Below, piece after piece: positions 1 to 64,000 of a DNA stretch of 64,000 nucleotides (within the stretch, counting starts at the first letter, position 1; each line of letters begins with the position of its first letter). The stretch covers positions 246,688 to 310,687 of the forward strand of contig WGNA01000011.1 in assembly GCA_016124755.1 (NCBI GenBank), written 5' to 3'. Below the pieces are notes generated by a model, which was not told the origin of the DNA, did no database searches, and saw nothing but the letters and a program-made list of their open reading frames with translations. Made by a program: the position numbers and the translations under genes. Origin of the DNA: Bacteroidota bacterium (GTDB lineage Bacteria > Bacteroidota > Bacteroidia > NS11-12g > UBA9320).

Positions 1-59
1 TGAAGAGATTAATTATAAAAAATTAATGAAGGTTGAGTTTTAAGGTGAGGGGGATCCGG

Positions 60-178
60 AGAAATGATTGATTTTTTGCTTACTTTTTTATCAAGAAAAA
101 AGTGAGAAAAGAGATTGTTAATTGATACCCAAACCGATTTACAATCTTGGTGTATCCAAACGGAGAAGCATTAAATAT
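60..178 (+). repeat. Copy 1 of a ~115-bp conserved noncoding element. The second copy is at 57758-57872. It contains an A/T-rich 11-bp-stem hairpin CTTACTTTTTT-atcaag-AAAAAAGTGAG.
   Basis: Aligning the two loci by eye gives about 85-90% identity over ~115 bp. Both copies sit directly upstream of + strand genes. Confidence 0.6.
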
Positions 179-190
179 TAAATCGCTAAA

Positions 191-610
191 ATGATCAAGT
201 TATCACATGAAGACGCAAACTATGAAGCCGTTTTTTTTATCATCTTTTGGACACTTTTTACAATGCTGACAGGTTGTGACCCAACTCACCACTTGACATT
301 GGAGAATAAAACAGATAAAACCGTTCAAGTTATTTATCTGCCTGAAATAGACGGCAGATATTTAAATGGAATAGAAACAGAGAAGATTAATATTCGAGGT
401 CAGGAAATGAATATACTAACCTTAGACTCAGGAGAAATAATTACAATTGGTAGCGTTTCCGCCATGTATACTCCAAAAGCAAGTGATATTCACTTACAAT
501 ATTTAGAACTAAGATATGGTTCTGACACACTAAGGTTATCCGGAAAAAACGCAATATTTTCAACTATACAGAAGGTCAAAAAACTTGATTGGAGACTTTT
601 AATAAAATAA
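191..610 (+). CDS. Hypothetical lipoprotein, 139 aa. A possible lipobox LTGC follows a hydrophobic N-terminus.
   Basis: ORF with a signal-like N-terminus (FFIIFWTLFTMLTGC). I recognised no family. Confidence 0.35.
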   Translation: MIKLSHEDANYEAVFFIIFWTLFTMLTGCDPTHHLTLENKTDKTVQVIYLPEIDGRYLNGIETEKINIRGQEMNILTLDSGEIITIGSVSAMYTPKASDIHLQYLELRYGSDTLRLSGKNAIFSTIQKVKKLDWRLLIK

Positions 611-8176: not shown

Positions 8177-8365
8177 TAGTATTCAGACTATGTTAAAGTC
8201 ATAAAGAAATTATTCGTTTCAGCTTTTATATTTGATTCTGAATCATTTGGGAATTCGTGCATAATTATGGTGCCATCAGCATTTTTATCCTCCTAAAATA
8301 TACTGATATCAAACTATGAATGAAATTTTGGTTTGGATACCTGCCTGCGATTTTATGATAAAAAT

Positions 8366-8950
8366 TCATTTCACCCCTTTGGGGTTGAACGTCCTCCTGT
8401 GTAGATTGTTTTATAATAATATCACCCCTTTGGGGTTTTGCAAACTCTGTGTAGTTTGTTTTATAATAATACCACCCCTTCGGGGTTTCACATACTCCTT
8501 TCCTTTGTTTTTATAATAATGCCAACCCTTCGGGTTTTACAACCTCGTTCACAAGATGTTTAATGGCAATTTCAATCCTTCTGGTTTACAAACCCTTGTT
8601 CAGAAGATCGATTTAGATTAATGCAAACCCATAAGGTTTGAGAACACCTGATCGCAGAGGATTTGTTTACTCTGAAAATTTATTTCAACGATCATAACCA
8701 ATCCCGAAGGGATGCAATGATTATAAAACCACACAAATGCAAATCCCAACCCCGAAGGGGTGACACATTATGGGAAATTAACTCGGGATTATAACCTGTG
8801 GTGTATAAGCTTTCCCACGAAGAAATAGTTCAGAAGAAAGATTGTTTAGGTATCACCCCTTCGGGGTTTACCATTCTCGTTTAGAGGTGTTTTTATAATA
8901 ATGCCAACCCTTCGGGTTTTATAACGATTTAGTATAAAAATTAGAGTTAC
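8366..8950. repeat. Array of about 10 degenerate ~50-bp units. Each carries a GC-clamped tetraloop hairpin (CACCCC-TTYG-GGGGTT or its reverse complement CCCC-GAAG-GGG) and a TGTTTTATAATAAT flank. The array fills the convergent intergenic region.
   Basis: Units start at about 8370, 8421, 8470, 8520, 8569, 8622, 8697, 8739, 8851 and 8902. Units G and H are inverted. The inter-hairpin segments are partly conserved (ctgtgtagattg / ctgtgtagtttg). Confidence 0.7.
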
Positions 8951-8985
8951 TAAAAATAGATTTAATAAAAAAACCTTTTTCCTGA

Positions 8986-15822: not shown

Positions 15823-16819
15823 AAGTCCGGAGATAACATCGCTAATTAATGGAATCAGGATCGGGAACCGCGCGTCTCTGGCCAAAGCTATTACACTGGT
15901 TGAAAGTGATTCTGAAAAACACATTGCCAAAGCCGCCGAATTATTGGAAAGATGTCTGCCTTATACCGGAAAATCAATACGCATCGGAATTACCGGTTCG
16001 CCGGGAGCCGGCAAGAGCACATTTATTAATGCGTTCGGAAAACACCTGATCGATAAACATAATAAAAGGGTCGCGGTGTTGGCAGTTGATCCCTCGAGCC
16101 GACTCAGCGGCGGAAGTATTTTAGGCGATAAAACCCGAATGCCGGAATTGGCGGTTGACGAAGATGCTTTTATCAGGCCGTCTCCCAGTCGGGGGGATCT
16201 GGGCGGGGTGGCTGCCCGAACCCGCGAATCCGTTTTGTTGTGTGAAGCGGCAGGTTACGACGTGATCTTAGTGGAAACTGTCGGGGTGGGGCAAAGTGAA
16301 ACGGCGGTTCACGAAATGGTGGATTTTTTTCTGTTGATTTTACTACCCGGTTCGGGAGACGATTTACAGGGAATAAAAAAAGGAATTATGGAAATGACCG
16401 ATTTGGTTGTGGTAAATAAAGCGGATGGCGACATGCTGAAAAAAGCCGGAGAATCTCAATCGTTTTACCGGCAGGCATTAATGCTGATGCACTCTCGCAG
16501 ATCGAATTGGTCAACTCCGGTTCTGTTGGCGTCTTCAACCGAAAATTCCGGGATGGAAGAAATCTGGAAAACCATAACCGAATTTGTATCCGTACAAAAA
16601 GAATCGTCCGCCTGGGATGAAAATCGCAGTCTTCAAAACATCACCTGGTTCGACCGCCATCTTGAAGAGGCCGTTGGGAGATATGTGAAGCGATCCGAAA
16701 AAGTGCGCTTACTTCGGGAAGCACTACTCCCCGAATTGCGAACCGGAAAAATTCACCCGTTGAATGCCGCGGAGGATGTTATGAAGAGGGTTTTGGGGGA
16801 GTGGGAGAAGGAGCAGTAA
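15809..16819 (+). CDS. meaB: Methylmalonyl-CoA mutase-associated GTPase MeaB (ArgK).
   Basis: P-loop GITGSPGAGKSTF, switch VETVGVGQSE and NKADG. No mutase gene lies adjacent. Confidence 0.85.
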   Translation: MPYSESPEITSLINGIRIGNRASLAKAITLVESDSEKHIAKAAELLERCLPYTGKSIRIGITGSPGAGKSTFINAFGKHLIDKHNKRVAVLAVDPSSRLSGGSILGDKTRMPELAVDEDAFIRPSPSRGDLGGVAARTRESVLLCEAAGYDVILVETVGVGQSETAVHEMVDFFLLILLPGSGDDLQGIKKGIMEMTDLVVVNKADGDMLKKAGESQSFYRQALMLMHSRRSNWSTPVLLASSTENSGMEEIWKTITEFVSVQKESSAWDENRSLQNITWFDRHLEEAVGRYVKRSEKVRLLREALLPELRTGKIHPLNAAEDVMKRVLGEWEKEQ

Positions 16820-17200
16820 CTGTAACTGTAACAGTAGCGAGAGCTAAAGAGAAAGAGCCGGAGAGACGCTGAATAATAGAAATTCTGAGCGTGCGAAGAA
16901 TCCCTTTTATCTGAATCGAACTACGTCATTCTGAGCGAAGCGAAGAAACTGTAGAAGTTCCTGCATTTTTACTGTTCAGTTGCTTCACTTTGCAAAACTT
17001 GATCTGAGACCGTTACCGTTACCGTTACTGTTTCCGTTTCTTCGCTTCGCTCAGAATGACGGCGGCTTTTTGGGGAAATCGGGGATTCTTCGCGAGCTAA
17101 GAATTTTAATCGCTCTCCCGCTCTTTTGCTCTGTGGCTCTTGTTACTGTTACCGTTACTGTTACCGTTACCGTTACACACCCCGTTTCCAATACCTTTGC
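16812..17200. repeat. Two inverted copies of a ~185-bp composite element. It consists of (GTAACN)n hexamers, an AGAGCGAAAGAGC-type purine tract, an AATTCTGAGC..GCGAAGAATCCC hairpin and GTCATTCTGAGCGAAGCGAAGAAAC. Together they form a ~390-bp imperfect palindrome centred near 16975.
   Basis: The reverse complement of 17010-17200 aligns with 16812-16960. A third copy lies at 32455-32650. Confidence 0.75.
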
Positions 17201-20328: not shown

Positions 20329-21567
20329 CTAATTCCCCGTTGATTCTGCTAAAATTTCTTCAATGTACTTTACAACTTTTTTTTCGGTATCACCTCCATA
20401 ACCGACATTCACTTTCCGAATGATTCCTTTACGGTCGATTAAATAAAGTGTAGGAAAACCATACACATGATAATCCTTTGCAACCGGTTTCCCTTCCAGT
20501 AAAATTTGATATCCGGCTCCGCGCTTCTGTAAAAAATCAGAAAGATTTTTTTCATCATTGTTATCGTATGGGTCAATACCAATAACCACCAAACCCTGAT
20601 CTTTATATTTCTCAGATAGAGCCTGAAGAGCGGGAACAGCCTGCATGCAAGGGGAACACCCTTTATAGAAAAATTCGAGAAGTACAACCTTTCCTTTTAA
20701 TTGATCGAGAGAAACGGAATCTTTCGGATTCATCATTTTCGGCAATTTCCAATATGGAGCAACGGAACTGTCTGCCAACAGGTCTGGTCTTTTGAAGTCG
20801 AAAGGGGAGAGAAATAGGTGATTTGATATGTCATCGATTGCATTTGCGATGGAATCGTTTGGTACATTAAACCGGTAATTTAACAACCTGTAATTTCTGA
20901 ATTCAGAAAAATAAAATCCGGATAATTGTTCGAAGTATTCATTATATTGAATCGGAATAAAGGATTTTTTTTGGATCCAAAATTCATTTGTAACATTAAA
21001 AGTGTCGTGGTTTGTGGAGTACATCGGACAGGAATATTTTATTCTGTAACATTTTACCCCGTTTATTTTTTCTATTCCAATCAATTTAAATCGGGCCTGT
21101 TTGTTTTCTAATTGTTTATCATGCGGTAAAATGTAAGCTGAGTCGTTTGTTACTAATTGAAACAACCGGAGCATGTACAAATCATTGAGAGATGTACAAT
21201 TTTTTTCCCGGTAATTTATTATTTCACCTATGCTGTCTGAAGGGGTATATGTAATTAATATTGAGTCGGAATATACAGCCGCTTTATTTTGATTAGTATC
21301 GATCTGATGGAAACGAAATGGTACGCTGTTGCTTTGTGTTTCTTTTATGAAATCGCAATGGAAACTGTTCTTTACTGTGTCAGACCTTAAGTTAGTGAAG
21401 TGTTGAAACTCCTCGTCATAAGTGCCATTTCTTATTTCCGTGCATTTATTCCAACTCTTTTGAAGAATGGTTTTCGGATTTGGCGCGCAGGAAGCCAAAA
21501 GGGTTACTGTTAGCGCGAAACTCAATGAAATTTTCATAAACTGGCGTTTATTATAGCTGCTGAACAA
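20329..21567 (-). CDS. TlpA-like thiol:disulfide oxidoreductase lipoprotein carrying a ~270-aa N-terminal domain I could not assign to any family.
   Basis: Lipoprotein signal LLASCAP. The C-terminal thioredoxin fold reads FFYKGCSPCMQAVPAL...GFPTLYLID. Tandem paralog of 21609..22865. Confidence 0.65.
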   Translation of the reverse strand: MFSSYNKRQFMKISLSFALTVTLLASCAPNPKTILQKSWNKCTEIRNGTYDEEFQHFTNLRSDTVKNSFHCDFIKETQSNSVPFRFHQIDTNQNKAAVYSDSILITYTPSDSIGEIINYREKNCTSLNDLYMLRLFQLVTNDSAYILPHDKQLENKQARFKLIGIEKINGVKCYRIKYSCPMYSTNHDTFNVTNEFWIQKKSFIPIQYNEYFEQLSGFYFSEFRNYRLLNYRFNVPNDSIANAIDDISNHLFLSPFDFKRPDLLADSSVAPYWKLPKMMNPKDSVSLDQLKGKVVLLEFFYKGCSPCMQAVPALQALSEKYKDQGLVVIGIDPYDNNDEKNLSDFLQKRGAGYQILLEGKPVAKDYHVYGFPTLYLIDRKGIIRKVNVGYGGDTEKKVVKYIEEILAESTGN

Positions 21568-21608: not shown

Positions 21609-22865
21609 CTAATTCACCGGAGATTCCGCTAATATTTCTTCAATGTATTGTTCCAATAATTCGTCAGTCCCATCTCCGAAGCCAACATTCACCTGTCGGA
21701 TGATTCCTTCCCGGTCGATTACATACATCGTGGGATATCCGGAAACGTGATAATTATCTGAAGCTGATTTCCCATCCATCAATATCTGATAACTGGCTCC
21801 GCGTTTTTCAAGAAAATCAGAAAGATTATTGTTTTCATTATTGTCGAACGGATCAATACCAACTACTTCAACACCTTTTTCTTTATAGGCTTCGCTCAGT
21901 TTCTGCAATCCGGGTATCGCTTGCATACACGGGTAACAACCTTTGTAGAAAAAGTCAATCAGAACAATTTTGCCCTTTAATTCCATCAGAGAAAGTGAGT
22001 CGGTAGAATCGCGCAATGTCGGGAGTTTCCAGACAGGTGCTATCGTATCGACAGGCAATAATGTTGGAGGCACGTATGGTTTAAATTCTTCCAGTTTTAC
22101 GTATTCCGGAACCCGGTTTAAAGAAATAGAATCACCCAATCCGGGAATATCAAACTGCGAATTGCGTATGGTTTTAATATTTAATTGGGTCATGGTATCT
22201 TTTTCCATGGTGATTAAATACAACGATGAATATCTCACCGGAATCATCGACTTTTTATCAATCCAATAATCGTTGGTAATGCTCAGAATCTGCATCGCTT
22301 CCGAAGTGTCGGGTTTGGGAGTTTGAATGGTTTGAATCCGGAAACATTTATGATTATTCAGATTGGCCGCTTTTAGGGATTTAATGTTAAACCCTGTATG
22401 GTGATACATCGAATCATCGGGTAACGGTGAAGCGTTTGTTCGAAACACAACATCGTAGAAATTGTAGTTGTGTTTGTATGCATCAATTTTGTCCGACCAT
22501 TTTTCGTTCGACATAATGGTACCCGCACTGTCGGTGGTTTTATAATTTACGAATTCGCTGGAAGTGTACAGAATGTCGCCGCCGTATTTTCCATTAAAAG
22601 TGTAGCTGTAGTGAAACTTCGCCGGATATATCGTGTCGTTTTCAAGTTTTGAAAATATGCAGTCGTATTCCCGCTTTACTGTATCAGTTTGGGTCATATA
22701 TTTTGTAATGTGATCCATGTGATACCTGCCGTTTTCGATGCTCTGACATTTATCCTTAGATATTTTCAGAATTTTTTCCGGTCTGGAAGAGCAGCCGTAT
22801 ACAAGAAGAAATGCCAATGCAAGTTGAATTAATTTTTTCATTGTTATTAAGACTTTCTTAATCAA
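21609..22865 (-). CDS. TlpA-like thiol:disulfide oxidoreductase lipoprotein, paralog of 20329..21567.
   Basis: Signal LVYGCSS. FFYKGCYPCMQAIPGL...GYPTMYVID. The C-terminal domains of the two paralogs are about 65% identical by eye. Confidence 0.65.
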   Translation of the reverse strand: MIKKVLITMKKLIQLALAFLLVYGCSSRPEKILKISKDKCQSIENGRYHMDHITKYMTQTDTVKREYDCIFSKLENDTIYPAKFHYSYTFNGKYGGDILYTSSEFVNYKTTDSAGTIMSNEKWSDKIDAYKHNYNFYDVVFRTNASPLPDDSMYHHTGFNIKSLKAANLNNHKCFRIQTIQTPKPDTSEAMQILSITNDYWIDKKSMIPVRYSSLYLITMEKDTMTQLNIKTIRNSQFDIPGLGDSISLNRVPEYVKLEEFKPYVPPTLLPVDTIAPVWKLPTLRDSTDSLSLMELKGKIVLIDFFYKGCYPCMQAIPGLQKLSEAYKEKGVEVVGIDPFDNNENNNLSDFLEKRGASYQILMDGKSASDNYHVSGYPTMYVIDREGIIRQVNVGFGDGTDELLEQYIEEILAESPVN

Positions 22866-31069: not shown

Positions 31070-32443
31070 TTGCAGGAATTAAAAAGCCAGATTCAACAAT
31101 TCACTTCGCCGGTTACTTTCGAATCACTCCGGTCGTTTATTACAGAACTTACACTTGAAAACCTCCGTTTCAATGAACACATTCCGGAACCGGAAGCTGC
31201 CGGGGATTACGGAAGAAATATTATAACACTTGAACCTTTTGAATGCGTTCTTATTCATTGGCCGGCCGGGGTTTCAAGCGCAATTCATTTACACGAGGGA
31301 CTTTTTGGTTATGTCTGGGTTCTGGAAGGAGAACTCGACAATGTCTTTTATAAATTTCAGGATGGTAAACTCATCGAATATTCCGTAGCCCGATATGGCA
31401 AAAACGGATTGATTCCGGAACCCGACGGAGTGATTCACAAACTCGCCAATAACACAAACACGCGCGCGATAACACTGCATTTTTATTACCCGGCGATTGA
31501 AAGTTTCGAGGGGATGCAGTTGTTCAATGTAGAAAAGCGAGCCATTGGTAGTCTGAGTGATAATGCCAATACCGCCAGTTGGCAGGATGAGGACGGACAT
31601 TTTTCAGAAGTAAAAACCAATGCATTCGACTTCGTTCCGTTTGATGTGCATCACCAACCCAAAACCCACGTAATGATTCCGGTTATTCCGAAACCGACAT
31701 CGGAAAGAATCCGGGAAATGAACGACGAATACTTTAGTGAGCAGGCACACAAATACGACTTTTCGGATTTCAACCAGCCCCGTAGAAAAGCTTATATCGA
31801 TGGCATTGACCGGGAAATTGCCCGTTTGCTTCAGGAGTCGGAACCCATAAAAAAAGTAATGGATATCGCAGTGGGTACTGGAAGACGTGCTCTTCACATA
31901 CGGGAAATCAGCGAACTCAATTATTCCATAACCGGGGTCGACATCAGTGAAGAGATGTGTGCCATTGCGGGTGAACGGGGCATTAGGGCAATTCACCACG
32001 ACTGGGTAAATGCTGAAATTCCGGATGAAAAGGACTTCGATGCCGTAACGTTCTTATACGCATTCGGACATATTGCCGACATAGAATCGAGAGAGCGTGC
32101 ATTGCGAAAAGTTCATCAGGTTTTAAAACCGGGCGGGATGATTTTCTTTGATGTCTTTAGTCTGAACAACCAAAACGAATGGGGACCTCAGGCTTCAAAG
32201 GCATTTGACCAACGCAATCTCGGGGAAAACGGATTCGACCGGGGCGATGTGTTCTATAAAAAAACGGAATTCAACAGCATCGCTTTTCTACATTATTTCA
32301 CCCATGAAGAAATTGAAGAATTACTCCATAAAACCGGATTTGTAGAGATAGAAATCCGTTCGATTGGTTATGCGAAAAATCCGGGACAGTGGGTGGATAG
32401 TGATAATGAGGGGAACTTTTTTGTGGCGGCGAGGAAGGTTTGA
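31070..32443 (+). CDS. Fusion protein with an N-terminal cupin domain and a C-terminal class I SAM-dependent methyltransferase (TTG start).
   Basis: Cupin-like HWPAGVSSAIHLHEGLFGYVWVLEGE. Methyltransferase motif I VMDIAVGTGRRAL and post-I VDISEEM...LKPGGMIFFDVF. Confidence 0.6.
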   Translation: MQELKSQIQQFTSPVTFESLRSFITELTLENLRFNEHIPEPEAAGDYGRNIITLEPFECVLIHWPAGVSSAIHLHEGLFGYVWVLEGELDNVFYKFQDGKLIEYSVARYGKNGLIPEPDGVIHKLANNTNTRAITLHFYYPAIESFEGMQLFNVEKRAIGSLSDNANTASWQDEDGHFSEVKTNAFDFVPFDVHHQPKTHVMIPVIPKPTSERIREMNDEYFSEQAHKYDFSDFNQPRRKAYIDGIDREIARLLQESEPIKKVMDIAVGTGRRALHIREISELNYSITGVDISEEMCAIAGERGIRAIHHDWVNAEIPDEKDFDAVTFLYAFGHIADIESRERALRKVHQVLKPGGMIFFDVFSLNNQNEWGPQASKAFDQRNLGENGFDRGDVFYKKTEFNSIAFLHYFTHEEIEELLHKTGFVEIEIRSIGYAKNPGQWVDSDNEGNFFVAARKV

Positions 32444-32454
32444 AGAGGAGGAGG

Positions 32455-32650
32455 GAGCGGTAGCGGTAACTGCAACGGTAACTGCAACGGTAACTGCAAC
32501 GGTAACCGTAACGGTAACAAGAGAAGGAGAGCGAAAGAGCTGGAGACAGGAGAGCGATCAAAATTCTGAGCCAGCGGAGAATCCCGATTTTCCCCAAAAA
32601 AAGACCGTCATTCCGAGCGAAGCGAAGATACCCAAACAGTAACGGGAACG
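32455..32650 (+). repeat. Third copy of the ~185-bp composite element: (GTAACTGCAACG)n hexamers, a purine tract, the AATTCTGAGCCAGCGGAGAATCCC hairpin and GTCATTCCGAGCGAAGCGAAGA.
   Basis: Aligns module-by-module with 17010-17200 (reverse complement) and 16812-16960. Confidence 0.7.
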
Positions 32651-32741
32651 GAAGAGCGGAAGAAAACGGAGAACGAATGCTAAGAGCGATGAAAAAGAAG
32701 GATTTCTGGCGGTTGGTTAATTTGGAATGGATCCTCGGTTT

Positions 32742-39006: not shown

Positions 39007-39897
39007 TTGAACCAACTGTTGGTTAAATATCTGAATTACCTGACGTTTCAGAGAAATCTGTCGCACCATACAATTGATGCGTATCGCTCAGACCTCCAGC
39101 AGTTCTGTGCTTTTCACAGCCTTGAAACAGACGATTCGATATTAAATGTAAAGTACAATGATGTACGGAGTTGGGTTGCGAGTCTGGCAAAAAGCAAAAT
39201 GGCACCAACTAGCATCAATCGGAAAATCAGTGCCGTAAAGCGCTTTTATAAGTACCTGAAAAAGTTGGATTTGGTTTCTGTGAATCCGGCAGATAGCGTC
39301 GGAAATCTGAAGAAGCCAAGAAGGTTGCCTCAATACGTGAAGCAATACGAAATGGATCGTTTAATCGATTCACATAAACCTGTAAATACCGGGGAAACCG
39401 AGTATACAGAAATCCTGGAGTTTACTGCTCTAATGCTCTTATATCAGGCAGGTTTGCGAAGATCAGAACTAATAAATCTGCTGGATGTTAATGTTGATAC
39501 GATTCAAAAAACCGTAAAGGTTATGGGAAAAGGGAGTAAGGAGAGAATCGTTCCGTTGACCGAAGAAATGAATGAACTTCTCAATAATTACAGGAATTCC
39601 CGTAATACTCTTGGAGATTTCCATGACAACTTTTTTATATTTGAGAACGGTAAGCCACTTTATGAGAAATGGGTTTACCGGCTGGTCAAAAAGTCATTGA
39701 GTGAAGTATCTACTGTCGCGAAGAAAAGCCCACACGTGTTGAGACATTCCTTTGCCACTCATCTGTTACAGAGAGGGGCAGATATTAATGCCATCAAGGA
39801 ATTACTCGGGCACTCGAGTTTGGCGGCTACCCAGATTTACGCGCACAACGACATTGAGCAGTTGAAGAAAATACATAAGTTACATCCTAATTCTTAG
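39007..39897 (+). CDS. Tyrosine site-specific recombinase, XerC/XerD family.
   Basis: C-terminal RHSFATHLL...LGHSSLAATQIYAH with the catalytic Tyr. Conserved position after rpsU. Confidence 0.85.
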   Translation: MNQLLVKYLNYLTFQRNLSHHTIDAYRSDLQQFCAFHSLETDDSILNVKYNDVRSWVASLAKSKMAPTSINRKISAVKRFYKYLKKLDLVSVNPADSVGNLKKPRRLPQYVKQYEMDRLIDSHKPVNTGETEYTEILEFTALMLLYQAGLRRSELINLLDVNVDTIQKTVKVMGKGSKERIVPLTEEMNELLNNYRNSRNTLGDFHDNFFIFENGKPLYEKWVYRLVKKSLSEVSTVAKKSPHVLRHSFATHLLQRGADINAIKELLGHSSLAATQIYAHNDIEQLKKIHKLHPNS

Positions 39898-56990: not shown

Positions 56991-57608
56991 TTGCGTAAAA
57001 AAATCACATTAGTAAATATGGATATCACCAAAATTATCATGGACCAGTTGGGCGAAAACGGACTTTCCGCCATGGCTGAAAAAATTGGAGCGGATAAAAA
57101 ACAAACTGCATCTGCTTTAGAAGGAATAATGCCTACACTACTCGGTGCGATGTCGAATAATTCGCAATCCGAATCCGGTGCATCGGGTTTACTCGGAGCA
57201 TTAGACCGCGATCATGACGGAAGCATTTTGGATGATATTACGGGTTTTATTACCGGTGGAGACAACAACTCCGGCTCCGGAATTCTTCGACACGTTTTGG
57301 GGGATAATCAATCTGCGGTTGAACAGGGCTTAAGTGCGAAAACCGGTTTGCAATCCAATCAGATTTCCAGTTTGCTCACGATGGTTGCGCCGATTTTAAT
57401 GGGATATCTCGGAAAACAGAAAAAACAATCCAATAACCAATCCGGTGGATTTGATCTCGGCGGGCTCTCTTCACTTTTAGGAAACTGGGCAGGTGAGGCA
57501 GACAAAAACACCGGTCTCGACCTCAACGATATTTTAAAAGTTGTGGGAGGATTAGGTGGCAAAAGTTCCGGTGGTCTTGGCGGATTACTCGGCAATCTTT
57601 TTAAATAA
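56991..57608 (+). CDS. Gly/Ser/Leu-rich DUF937-like protein.
   Basis: Repeated LLGA/LGGL segments (PTLLGAMS, GLLGAL, LGGLSSLLGN, GGLGGLLGNLF). Confidence 0.45.
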   Translation: MRKKITLVNMDITKIIMDQLGENGLSAMAEKIGADKKQTASALEGIMPTLLGAMSNNSQSESGASGLLGALDRDHDGSILDDITGFITGGDNNSGSGILRHVLGDNQSAVEQGLSAKTGLQSNQISSLLTMVAPILMGYLGKQKKQSNNQSGGFDLGGLSSLLGNWAGEADKNTGLDLNDILKVVGGLGGKSSGGLGGLLGNLFK

Positions 57609-57757
57609 TAATTATTTCTCCGCTTCATCACACCTTCTTGTGGTTAGAACTAAAAGAACAAAATGAATTGTGCGAAGCGGATTCTAAAACAAGAATTGGA
57701 TCGCGTGGGTGGGACGTGGGAAAGGCGGGATGGCCCCGGCGGGAATTTGCTATCCGA

Positions 57758-57872
57758 CTTGATTTTTTGCTTACTTTTTTATCAAGAAAAAAGTGAGAAG
57801 AAAATAGTTTGTACATCGATCTCCCAACCAATTTACAATCTTGGTGTATCCATACTGAGAAGTATTTACCAA
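57758..57872 (+). repeat. Copy 2 of the ~115-bp conserved noncoding element. Copy 1 is at 60-178.
   Basis: Shared segments GATTTTTTGCTTACTTTTTTATCAAGAAAAAAGTGAGAA and CAATTTACAATCTTGGTGTATCCA. Confidence 0.6.
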
Positions 57873-57976
57873 TTTTTTATCCGGAGGAAATTTGCTCCTC
57901 CGATGCAACCTTTTCTCCACGTATCAGACTAAGGGAAAAACGTATCTTTACCTGAGATTCCGTTATTTCCTTTAGC

Positions 57977-59584
57977 ATGATAACATCAACGCAGAAAGCC
58001 ACACGCACTCAATCCGGACTTAGTGAATACACCGGGTCATGGACAGCAGCGGAAGTTCGACACCTGCTTCGGCGAACCATGTTTGGTTGCAAGCCATCGG
58101 ATGTTGAATATTTCCTTTCTAAAAACATGAGCGATTCGGTGGATGAATTACTCAATGTTTCATCGACTCCACCCGATCCTCCGGTGAACAATTATAATTC
58201 GAGCAGGCTTACCGATCCGGATATTGCTTTGGGCGATACCTGGGTGAACGGGCCGGATAATTCCGGTTTGTATGGTGTGCGGATGTTGTCTTTAAAAGCC
58301 TGGTGGGTTGGTTTAATGATCAACCAAAGCCGGTCTGTTCTCGAGCAGATGACGCTCTTTTGGCACAACCATTTTTCGACCGAAACCAACGTGTACCGCG
58401 ATCCGATTTACGGCTACAAACACGTGGCGATGTTGCGGGCAAATGCTCTCGGAAATTTTAAATCATTCGTAAAATCAGTAACACTCGATCCGGCGATGCT
58501 CGACTATCTCAACGGGCAGAAAAATTCTAAAAATGCGCCGGATGAAAATTATGGAAGAGAACTACAAGAGCTCTTCACTTTAGGAAAAGGCCCCGATTCG
58601 AAATACACTGAAGACGATGTTAAACAAGCGGCCAGAGTTCTAACCGGCTACCGGATTAACCGAACGAATTACACTTCCTTTTTTCAGGCGAATCAACACG
58701 ATACCGGAAATAAAACTTTCTCATCTTTCTATGGCAACCATACCATTACCGGGAAAAGCGGAACCGACGGAGCAACTGAACTCGACGACTTGCTCGATAT
58801 GATTTTTAATGAAGAGGAAGTGTCGAAATTTCTTTGCCGCAAACTCTATCGATGGTTCGTTTACTACGACATTGATGCGGGTGTGGAAGACGATGTAATT
58901 TCTCCGTTGGCGGCAATTTTCAGAACGAATAATTACGATATAAAACCGGTACTCGAAGCACTGTTTAAAAGCGAACACTTTTTTGATGTTGCGAATCGGG
59001 GTTGTCTCATTAAATCCCCCATCAACTCAACAGTTGGAATGTTGCGGCAATGCGATGTTGCGATTCCTGATTCTTCCAAAGTTGTTCAACAATATTATTT
59101 CTGGCAGATTGCCCAGCAGGTTTCGGCAGCGCAGCAACAGGATGTCGGAGATCCGCCAAATGTTTCCGGTTGGCCGGCATATTATCAGGTCCCGCAATTC
59201 CATGAAATCTGGATCAACACCGACACGCTACCGAAGCGAAATCAGATAACCGACATAATGGTTTTTGCCGGAGTGAGCCGCGACGGAGAAAAGATGGTGA
59301 TCGACACCACGCACGTTGCGGAAATGACTTCCAAACCAGAAGATCCGAATAAGCTGATTCAGGATTTGCTCGATAACTTTTATACGCTCGATGTCAGTTC
59401 GGATCAGAAAACCTATATGAAAAGTTTGCTGCTTTCGGGGCAATCGAACGACAGCTACTGGACGAATGCCTGGAATACCTATCAGGGAGATAAAACCAAT
59501 GCGCTCAACAAAACAATAGTTGAGAACCGTTTGAAAGGATTGTTAAAATACATCATGAACCTGGGAGAATTTCAACTCTCGTAA
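57977..59584 (+). CDS. DUF1800 family protein.
   Basis: N-terminal HLLRRTMFG motif. Length 535 aa. Paired with a downstream DUF1501 gene. Confidence 0.65.
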   Translation: MITSTQKATRTQSGLSEYTGSWTAAEVRHLLRRTMFGCKPSDVEYFLSKNMSDSVDELLNVSSTPPDPPVNNYNSSRLTDPDIALGDTWVNGPDNSGLYGVRMLSLKAWWVGLMINQSRSVLEQMTLFWHNHFSTETNVYRDPIYGYKHVAMLRANALGNFKSFVKSVTLDPAMLDYLNGQKNSKNAPDENYGRELQELFTLGKGPDSKYTEDDVKQAARVLTGYRINRTNYTSFFQANQHDTGNKTFSSFYGNHTITGKSGTDGATELDDLLDMIFNEEEVSKFLCRKLYRWFVYYDIDAGVEDDVISPLAAIFRTNNYDIKPVLEALFKSEHFFDVANRGCLIKSPINSTVGMLRQCDVAIPDSSKVVQQYYFWQIAQQVSAAQQQDVGDPPNVSGWPAYYQVPQFHEIWINTDTLPKRNQITDIMVFAGVSRDGEKMVIDTTHVAEMTSKPEDPNKLIQDLLDNFYTLDVSSDQKTYMKSLLLSGQSNDSYWTNAWNTYQGDKTNALNKTIVENRLKGLLKYIMNLGEFQLS

Positions 59585-62891: not shown

Positions 62892-64000
62892 ATGACGAGC
62901 TTAGCGCAAAGACAAGAACTGCAAAATAAAATATGGAAAATCGCTAACGATGTTCGCGGTTCTGTTGATGGTTGGGATTTTAAACAGTTCGTGTTAGGAA
63001 CACTTTTCTACCGTTTTATCAGTGAGAATTTTACCCATTACATTGAAGGTGGAGATGAGAGCGTGAACTATCCGAGTCTATCAGATGACGTAATTACACC
63101 AGAAATAAAAGACGATGCGATAAAAACCAAAGGCTACTTTATTTCCCCAAGCCAATTGTTTGTGAATGTTGCTAAAAATGCCAACACCAACCCAAATCTC
63201 AATACCGACTTAAAAGCCATTTTCGACTCAATTGAAAGTTCGGCCAACGGTTATCCATCGGAGCAAGACATAAAAGGATTGTTTGCCGATTTCGACACCA
63301 CCAGTTCGAGACTTGGGAATACAGTAGAAAATAAAAACAGGCGATTAGCTGCTGTTTTGAAAGGCGTGGAAGAACTTAATTTCCGAAGTTTTGAAGAAAG
63401 CGAAATTGAACTCTTTGGTGATGCCTATGAATTTCTGATTGGTAATTATGCTGCCAATGCCGGAAAATCGGGAGGCGAATTCTTTACGCCAGTGCACGTT
63501 TCAAAACTCATTGCACAATTGGCCATGCATGGGCAAACAACCGTAAACAAAATTTACGATCCGGCGGCCGGTTCCGGTTCCTTGCTTTTACAAGCCAAAA
63601 AACACTTCGACGACCACATTATTCAGGAAGGATTCTTCGGACAGGAAGTAAACCACACCACGTACAACCTGGCTCGCATGAACATGTTTTTGCACAACAT
63701 TAATTACGACAAGTTTCATATTGTACTGGGTGACACCTTGCGGGAACCACAATTGGGGAATGAAAAGCCATTTGACGCCATCGTATCTAATCCGCCTTAT
63801 TCGGTAAAATGGATTGGCGACGATGATCCCACCTTAATCAATGACGACCGATTTGCACCTGCCGGTGTTTTAGCTCCCAAGTCTAAAGCCGATTTTGCCT
63901 TTGTACTGCACGCACTTAGTTATCTTTCCGGTACAGGACGAGCCGCCATTGTCTGTTTCCCCGGCATATTTTACCGGGGTGGTGCGGAGCAGAAAATCCG
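62892..64000 (+). CDS. hsdM: Type I restriction-modification system methyltransferase subunit HsdM, 5' partial; 3' end lies beyond the window.
   Basis: Hand translation gives [47 protein letters not shown]...[12 protein letters not shown]...IVSNPPYS. It is missing from the ORF track because no stop codon falls inside the window. Confidence 0.85.

Follow-up and report, generated by a model that had tools for sequence, protein, structure and literature searches.

A short intergenic element with an A/T-rich hairpin, present twice in a Bacteroidota genome, as a candidate dispersed repeat

The same sequence of about a hundred nucleotides occurs twice in a 64,000-nt stretch of a Bacteroidota genome (the window), each time in front of a different gene, which raises the question of whether it is a shared regulatory region, an RNA, or a repeat. 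The window is ordinary chromosome, with tRNAs, tuf, the rpoB-rpoC region, and genes for housekeeping enzymes, and several of its proteins carry a type IX secretion sorting domain, which places the organism in Bacteroidota. An earlier note made from the sequence had placed the two copies, A and B, at 60-178 and 57758-57872 and had put their identity at ~85-90%. Both copies were recovered, with a slightly shorter homologous core (Table 1). Their alignment spans 108 columns at 85% identity and contains 13 substitutions and a single 3-nt indel; blastn gives 86% over 108. The copies lie 57.7 kb apart, and their flanks are unrelated. The element (~106 nt) is intergenic and has the same orientation as the flanking genes in both copies.

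The downstream plus-strand genes are as the earlier note described them. Copy A is followed by an ORF at 191-610 (+ strand; MBI1306786.1, locus tag GC181_09245) that has no Pfam match and encodes, as read from the sequence, a lipoprotein-type signal ending in LTGC; the shared part of copy A ends ~18 nt before the ATG of this gene. Copy B is followed by an ORF at 57977-59584 (+ strand; MBI1306839.1) that matches DUF1800 with E = 2.5e-97. No third copy was detected in the 64-kb window, whether with nhmmer (--max) or with a two-copy covariance model run with filters off, and the same model found nothing new in 125 kb of loci from relatives. The part of the genome readable for copy counting was the 64-kb window and 5.6 kb beyond it.

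Table 1. Positions of the element, its parts, and nearby features in the window.
Feature	Position	Strand	Sequence	Remark
Copy A	68-172	+		Occupies most of the 147 nt from the stop codon of a possible ORF (41-43) to the lipoprotein ATG (191)
41-nt block, copy A	68-108	+	TTGATTTTTTGCTTACTTTTTTATCAAGAAAAAAGTGAGAA	Identical in both copies
Hairpin, copy A	79-106	+	CTTACTTTTTT / ATCAAG / AAAAAAGTGAG	Arms 79-89 and 96-106, loop ATCAAG 90-95
22-mer, copy A	137-158	+	ATTTACAATCTTGGTGTATCCA	Identical in both copies
Left flank of copy A	54-65	+	ATCCGGAGAAAT	Marginal likeness to the 5′ half of the G+C hairpin, P ~0.016
Copy B	57759-57866	+		Within the 368-nt DUF937-DUF1800 spacer
41-nt block, copy B	57759-57799	+	TTGATTTTTTGCTTACTTTTTTATCAAGAAAAAAGTGAGAA	Identical in both copies
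Hairpin, copy B	57770-57797	+	CTTACTTTTTT / ATCAAG / AAAAAAGTGAG	Arms 57770-57780 and 57787-57797, loop 57781-57786
22-mer, copy B	57831-57852	+	ATTTACAATCTTGGTGTATCCA	Identical in both copies
Imperfect 23-nt direct repeat around copy B, left member	57736-57757	+	CCGGCGGGAATTTGCT-ATCCGA	P ~7e-4 by shuffling
Imperfect 23-nt direct repeat around copy B, right member	57881-57903	+	CCGGAGGAAATTTGCTCCTCCGA	P ~7e-4 by shuffling
Presumed −7 box of the DUF1800 gene, outside the element	57943-57950	+	TATCTTTA	TAnnTTT invariant in six genomes

Divergence between the copies is patchy. Two blocks, 63 nt in total, show 100% identity, in contrast to ~67% in the remaining 43 columns, which contain 14 events; runs of 41 and 22 identical bases have P = 1.5e-4 under random placement of the differences. 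The perfect preservation of 63 nt beside ~67% identity elsewhere implies that the two blocks are constrained or that gene conversion was patchy. The same contrast would suit a functional RNA or a site bound by a protein as well. The second block had been proposed as a conserved 24-mer; its 22 nt listed in Table 1 are identical, but the start of the 24-mer differs, with CG in copy A and CA in copy B. The left boundary of the element is sharp at TTGAT, 5′ of which the copies have no similarity, and the right boundary fades into A/T-rich sequence past GAGAAG(C/T)ATT. In 100 dinucleotide shuffles, the hairpin and 22-mer patterns occurred 0 times with up to 3 mismatches allowed.

The palindromic A/T hairpin reported for each copy is present and lies inside the 41-nt block. 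It is A/T-rich, with 11-nt arms and one T-G position. An upstream T-run pairs with a downstream A-rich run to give a stem of 16-18 bp; in copy A, the stem is lengthened by pairing of U72-77 with 107-112. Differences between the copies at the base of the stem preserve pairing. Folded as RNA, the hairpin has −11.8 kcal/mol on the + strand versus −5.4 on the − strand in copy A, and −13.4 versus −4.7 in copy B. The + strand hairpin is more stable, by 6-9 kcal/mol, because its G-U pairs become C-A mismatches on the − strand. If a single-stranded structure matters, these folds would make the + strand the relevant one, and the flanking genes have their sense sequence on that strand too. Folds of the whole element have z = −3.3 (copy A) and −2.0 (copy B) on the + strand and −0.9 and −0.3 on the − strand. 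The hairpin is the sole structure common to both copies, the folds predicted elsewhere differing between A and B, and since it is identical in the two copies, it carries no covariation information.

Homologues were searched for with exact words. Exact 17- to 29-mers from the element identified no real homologue in 596 Gb of genomes, JGI metagenomes, or IMG/VR, and three exact-word scans of viral collections returned nothing or chance matches in unrelated sequence. The 20-mer TTTACAATCTTGGTGTATCC from the conserved box matched once in each of two collections, the 596 Gb of species-representative genomes and the JGI metagenomes; the two matches, in coding DNA (a Paucisalibacillus gene and a TPR gene) with dissimilar flanks, were rejected as due to chance. 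The earlier note had named the lack of homologues elsewhere and of covariation as an argument against the element. Neither was found, in a search that used exact words only, which rules out near-identical copies in the scanned collections rather than diverged homologues and is thus a weak test of homology.

Assembled reads hint at further copies. Logan k=31 contigs of the same organism (run SRR10063241, the comparison metagenome in PMC8468003) end inside or next to both copies, at window positions 146, 57680, and 57826. If the shared 41-mer were the only cause of these breaks, they would lie closer in; their positions may thus mean that other copies share longer stretches with A and B. Some breaks have causes other than repeats, since one of the contigs (L002) also breaks off within a coding region.

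The element is noncoding, as had been proposed, in that it contains no conserved ORF. On the + strand, a frame open in copy B is interrupted in copy A; on the − strand, a frame is open in both copies, with no start codon in A and with differences that are all non-synonymous. A search of protein databases with six-frame translations of both copies returned nothing at E <= 10. The element also fits no riboswitch, in line with the earlier reading: no Rfam 15 family matches it at gathering score, and matches at E <= 10 are only hairpin look-alikes to microRNA precursors.

The housekeeping promoter of Bacteroidota consists of a −7 box, TAnnTTTG, with TTTG ~19-21 nt upstream. TAnnTTTG is absent from both strands of the element. 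The only relaxed −7 match, TACTTTTT, lies within a hairpin arm and has no shared −33 partner, and upstream of the element there is no Bacteroidota-type promoter motif common to both copies. A sigma-70 promoter was rejected, the only match being weak (9/12) and confined to copy B, as was a sigma-54 promoter, for which no such spacing is visible. None of the DnaA box, the dif/Xer site, and the integron attC site fits beyond a few bases on inspection. Scans of 1-700 and 57400-58100 detected no intrinsic terminator, and the hairpin of the element is itself unlike one, since A residues follow its A/U-rich stem. The 48 window ORFs scanned against Pfam include no gene for a transposase, a RAYT, or a HUH enzyme. 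The only recombinase in the window is a XerD-like protein (39007-39897) with a SAM-like N-terminal domain and a catalytic domain, whose gene is immediately followed by hpf, a tRNA cluster, and tuf.

The site of copy B can be compared with relatives. The gene order rpoC, DUF3467, hypothetical gene, (variable genes), DUF937, DUF1800, DUF1501 is kept in five of them. Their DUF937-DUF1800 spacers are 101-189 nt long versus 368 nt in the window, and the element is absent from all five. It is also absent from locus L019, where the DUF1800 orthologue lies in a different gene context. Because the relatives are distant, the closest DUF1800 orthologues being 73-74% identical, the apparent insertion at copy B is best regarded as lineage-specific DNA rather than as a demonstrated empty site.

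Other repeated or structured DNA occurs at the same site. In one relative (L011/L012), the DUF937-DUF1800 spacer contains three tandem copies of a different palindrome, GGTCGGTGTTCTCACCGACC (L011 8267-8457; L012 3154-3344), so this site tolerates or attracts repeats. In the window, the spacer contains, upstream of copy B, an interrupted long hairpin, CCGCTTC...GAAGCGG (57619-57681; −18.5 kcal/mol, z = −3.3), followed by a G-rich run (57700-57745). The Logan contig that ends at 57680 does so exactly there, so this part of the spacer may also be repeated elsewhere.

With moderate confidence, we take the element to be a lineage-specific, noncoding, dispersed intergenic repeat of the general REP/ERIC/Correia kind that is co-transcribed with its neighbours, a reading for which two copies are so far the basis. 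The sequence family is new, and the general kind is familiar. We infer mobility, co-transcription, and, if there is one, an effect at the RNA level. The element would have been added in this lineage to spacers between co-directional genes, in the orientation of those genes. Since it has the same orientation as its flanking genes, it is probably transcribed within their mRNAs: copy B would be part of the 3′ untranslated region of the DUF937 transcript, and copy A part of an operon spacer or a 5′ leader. Its two putatively constrained modules, the 16-18-bp A/U hairpin and the 22-nt box, would most likely be cis sites for the propagation of the element itself, or would provide an RNA hairpin that affects processing or stability of host transcripts, as known for REP, ERIC, and Correia-type repeats.

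The REP/BIME, ERIC/IRU, and Correia (NEMIS) sequences of proteobacteria are small repeats, dispersed between genes and transcribed together with them. The element resembles them in its length of ~100 nt, its noncoding and intergenic nature, its strong hairpin, its position on the transcribed strand of co-directional genes, and its restriction to one lineage. It differs from them in that it has no sequence similarity to any of them, no terminal inverted repeats of the Correia or ERIC type, no GTAG-type REP head, and no RAYT among the window ORFs. REP/BIME sequences are imperfect palindromes of 20-40 nt with a conserved head tetranucleotide, often clustered, in genomes with a RAYT gene; here, in contrast, the unit is ~106 nt long with one palindrome, the copies are single, and no Y1 transposase is found among the window ORFs. 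PATEs, which are miniature elements derived from IS200/IS605, carry related hairpins at their two ends, require a TnpA (Y1) gene, and have neither inverted ends nor a target duplication. The element shares with them the lack of inverted ends, the single orientation, and a hairpin close to one end, and it shows no convincing target duplication, but it has the left hairpin only, and there is no TnpA in the window. MITEs are recognised by terminal inverted repeats, by short target-site duplications of equal length at all copies, and by high copy number; the element has no terminal inverted repeats. Since features of MITEs, REPs, and IS200/IS605 derivatives are lacking wherever they can be checked, we file the element under none of these classes. 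A precedent within Bacteroidota is the BrickBuilt MITE of Porphyromonas gingivalis, for which PMC4596501 reports small inverted repeats at the ends, a 23-nt minisatellite inside, 19 copies, and promoter activity that was measured. BrickBuilt is likewise species-restricted and always intergenic, tens to hundreds of nucleotides from coding sequences, whereas our element has no inverted ends, no internal tandem repeat, no promoter motif, and two known copies.

An unlikely alternative, though the one to be taken most seriously, is one also raised in the earlier note: a small RNA gene or cis-acting RNA module, encoded on the + strand. Its 5′ A/U hairpin would precede the 22-nt box, which would be single-stranded and would pair with targets or bind a protein. 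The two perfectly kept blocks beside ~67% identity elsewhere, the far greater stability of the hairpin on the + strand with its G-U pairs, and the z scores of the whole-element folds (−3.3 and −2.0 on the + strand versus −0.9 and −0.3 on the − strand) are all consistent with an RNA. So is a G+C hairpin located after copy B (CGGAGGA / AATTTGC / TCCTCCG, 57882-57902; −11.9 kcal/mol, z = −3.2). However, there is no Bacteroidota-type promoter motif inside the element or shared upstream of it, and copy A has no terminator and is followed by the lipoprotein ATG ~18 nt past the shared part. The folds of A and B differ outside the hairpin, no Rfam family matches, and the searched collections yielded no homologue that could reveal covariation.

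The flanks of the copies were compared as well. The right member of the imperfect direct repeat around copy B (Table 1) is also the G+C hairpin, which adjoins the conserved upstream region of DUF1800. This direct repeat has no counterpart at copy A; the AAATGAT repeat that flanks copy A differs from it in both length and sequence and is not significant. Flank comparison and shuffling revealed no convincing target-site duplication at either copy. Terminal inverted repeats joining the ends of either copy are also absent, the internal hairpin being the only strong inverted repeat. Given the marginal likeness of the left flank of copy A to the G+C hairpin, the element may carry this motif at its left end or may insert beside such hairpins; it could be up to ~130 nt long if the left CCGG..AAT motif belongs to it.

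These observations bear on a rather improbable alternative, namely that the element is a relic of the end of a larger mobile element (an IS end, a single-strand element of the IS200/IS605 or IS91 type, or a recombinase attachment region), with the hairpin as the recognition site of the enzyme. Such an origin would agree with the sharp left boundary at TTGAT in the absence of terminal inverted repeats and of a convincing target duplication, with the position of the hairpin near one end, and with the significant 23-nt direct repeat that brackets copy B and contains 7-bp inverted arms around AATTTGC. Two motif resemblances go in the same direction. On the − strand, the loop reads CTTGATA (90-96; 57781-57787), which we take to be a rolling-circle nick motif of the pC194/phiX174 type, and TTGAT at the left boundary (68-72; 57759-57763) presumably corresponds to the ISDra2 target. 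However, both resemblances are short, were noticed after the fact, and are probably coincidences. Moreover, IS200/IS605 derivatives retain a hairpin at either end, and the element has just one. The window encodes no enzyme that would match, and no larger element with shared sequence was found in the collections scanned.

At copy B, the data contradict the earlier idea that the element serves both genes as promoter or leader: the upstream region of DUF1800 (57903-57976) is conserved in relatives that do not have the element. This region aligns with the L005 spacer (ATGCAACC...CAGACTAA...GTATCTTTAC). A TAnnTTT box, which we take to be a Bacteroidota −7 promoter element, is located 27-30 nt before the DUF1800 ATG in all six genomes. 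Since this conserved box is downstream of copy B, DUF1800 has its own promoter, 75 nt downstream of the copy, and the G+C hairpin stands between the two. It is thus improbable that the element is a promoter or operator, that is, a DNA cassette putting the lipoprotein and DUF1800-DUF1501 genes under one regulator, even though both copies point to a downstream + strand gene, copy A ends just before the lipoprotein ATG, and candidate protein-binding sites can be read in the 41-nt block, which is near-palindromic with phased T6, T6, A6, and A4 tracts ~11-12 bp apart, and in the 22-mer, which contains TACA-N7-TGTA; the lack of TAnnTTTG and of visible sigma-54-like spacing, and a sigma-70-type match of 9/12 in copy B only, weigh further against it. 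In annotation, the element should not be assigned to the DUF1800-DUF1501 operon as its promoter or leader.

We also doubt that the element is a lineage-restricted functional RNA or single-strand DNA module whose hairpin and 22-nt box are recognised by a protein or act as an antisense seed; such a module could be, for example, a repeat-born small RNA family or the cis site of an undescribed mobilisation system of Bacteroidota, which could insert beside terminator-like hairpins such as CGGAGGA-AATTTGC-TCCTCCG.

If the dispersed repeat proves to be multi-copy in the genome, Bacteroidota, a phylum with few described families of structured intergenic repeats, would gain another, and the repeat would mark sites of genome plasticity beside conserved genes. 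Its importance is limited at present to that of a two-copy repeat in one metagenome-assembled genome, with a putative role.

Besides this element, the window contains at least two other families of intergenic repeats. An 800-nt noncoding stretch (8177-8985), between a NERD-domain gene and a − strand ORF, contains at least seven G+C hairpins (CACCCCTTTGGGGT or CAACCCTTCGGGTT), several of them in ~50-nt units starting with TGTTTTATAATAATA; judging by their sequence, the hairpins of this cluster look like REP-like or terminator-like repeats. The second family, at 16815-17190 and 32440-32680, consists of a palindromic unit, CGTCATTCTGAGCGAAGCGAAGAA, together with runs of short GTAAC(C/T)G tandem repeats, and its inverted copies, 15 kb apart, are 83% complementary over 103 nt.

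Two further observations concern genes. At 20329-21567 and 21609-22865 (− strand), there are tandem paralogues of ~415 aa with a C-terminal AhpC/TSA-redoxin domain, which share 285 nt at 73% identity. From window position 62892 onward and past the window end (L004 5067-11759), the DNA encodes a type I restriction-modification system together with a RhuM protein. The HsdR of this locus matches proteins named from Algoriphagus, Marivirga, Roseivirga, and others at 88-94% identity, whereas no match of the DUF1800 protein encoded next to it exceeds 74%, which suggests that the restriction-modification locus was acquired horizontally.
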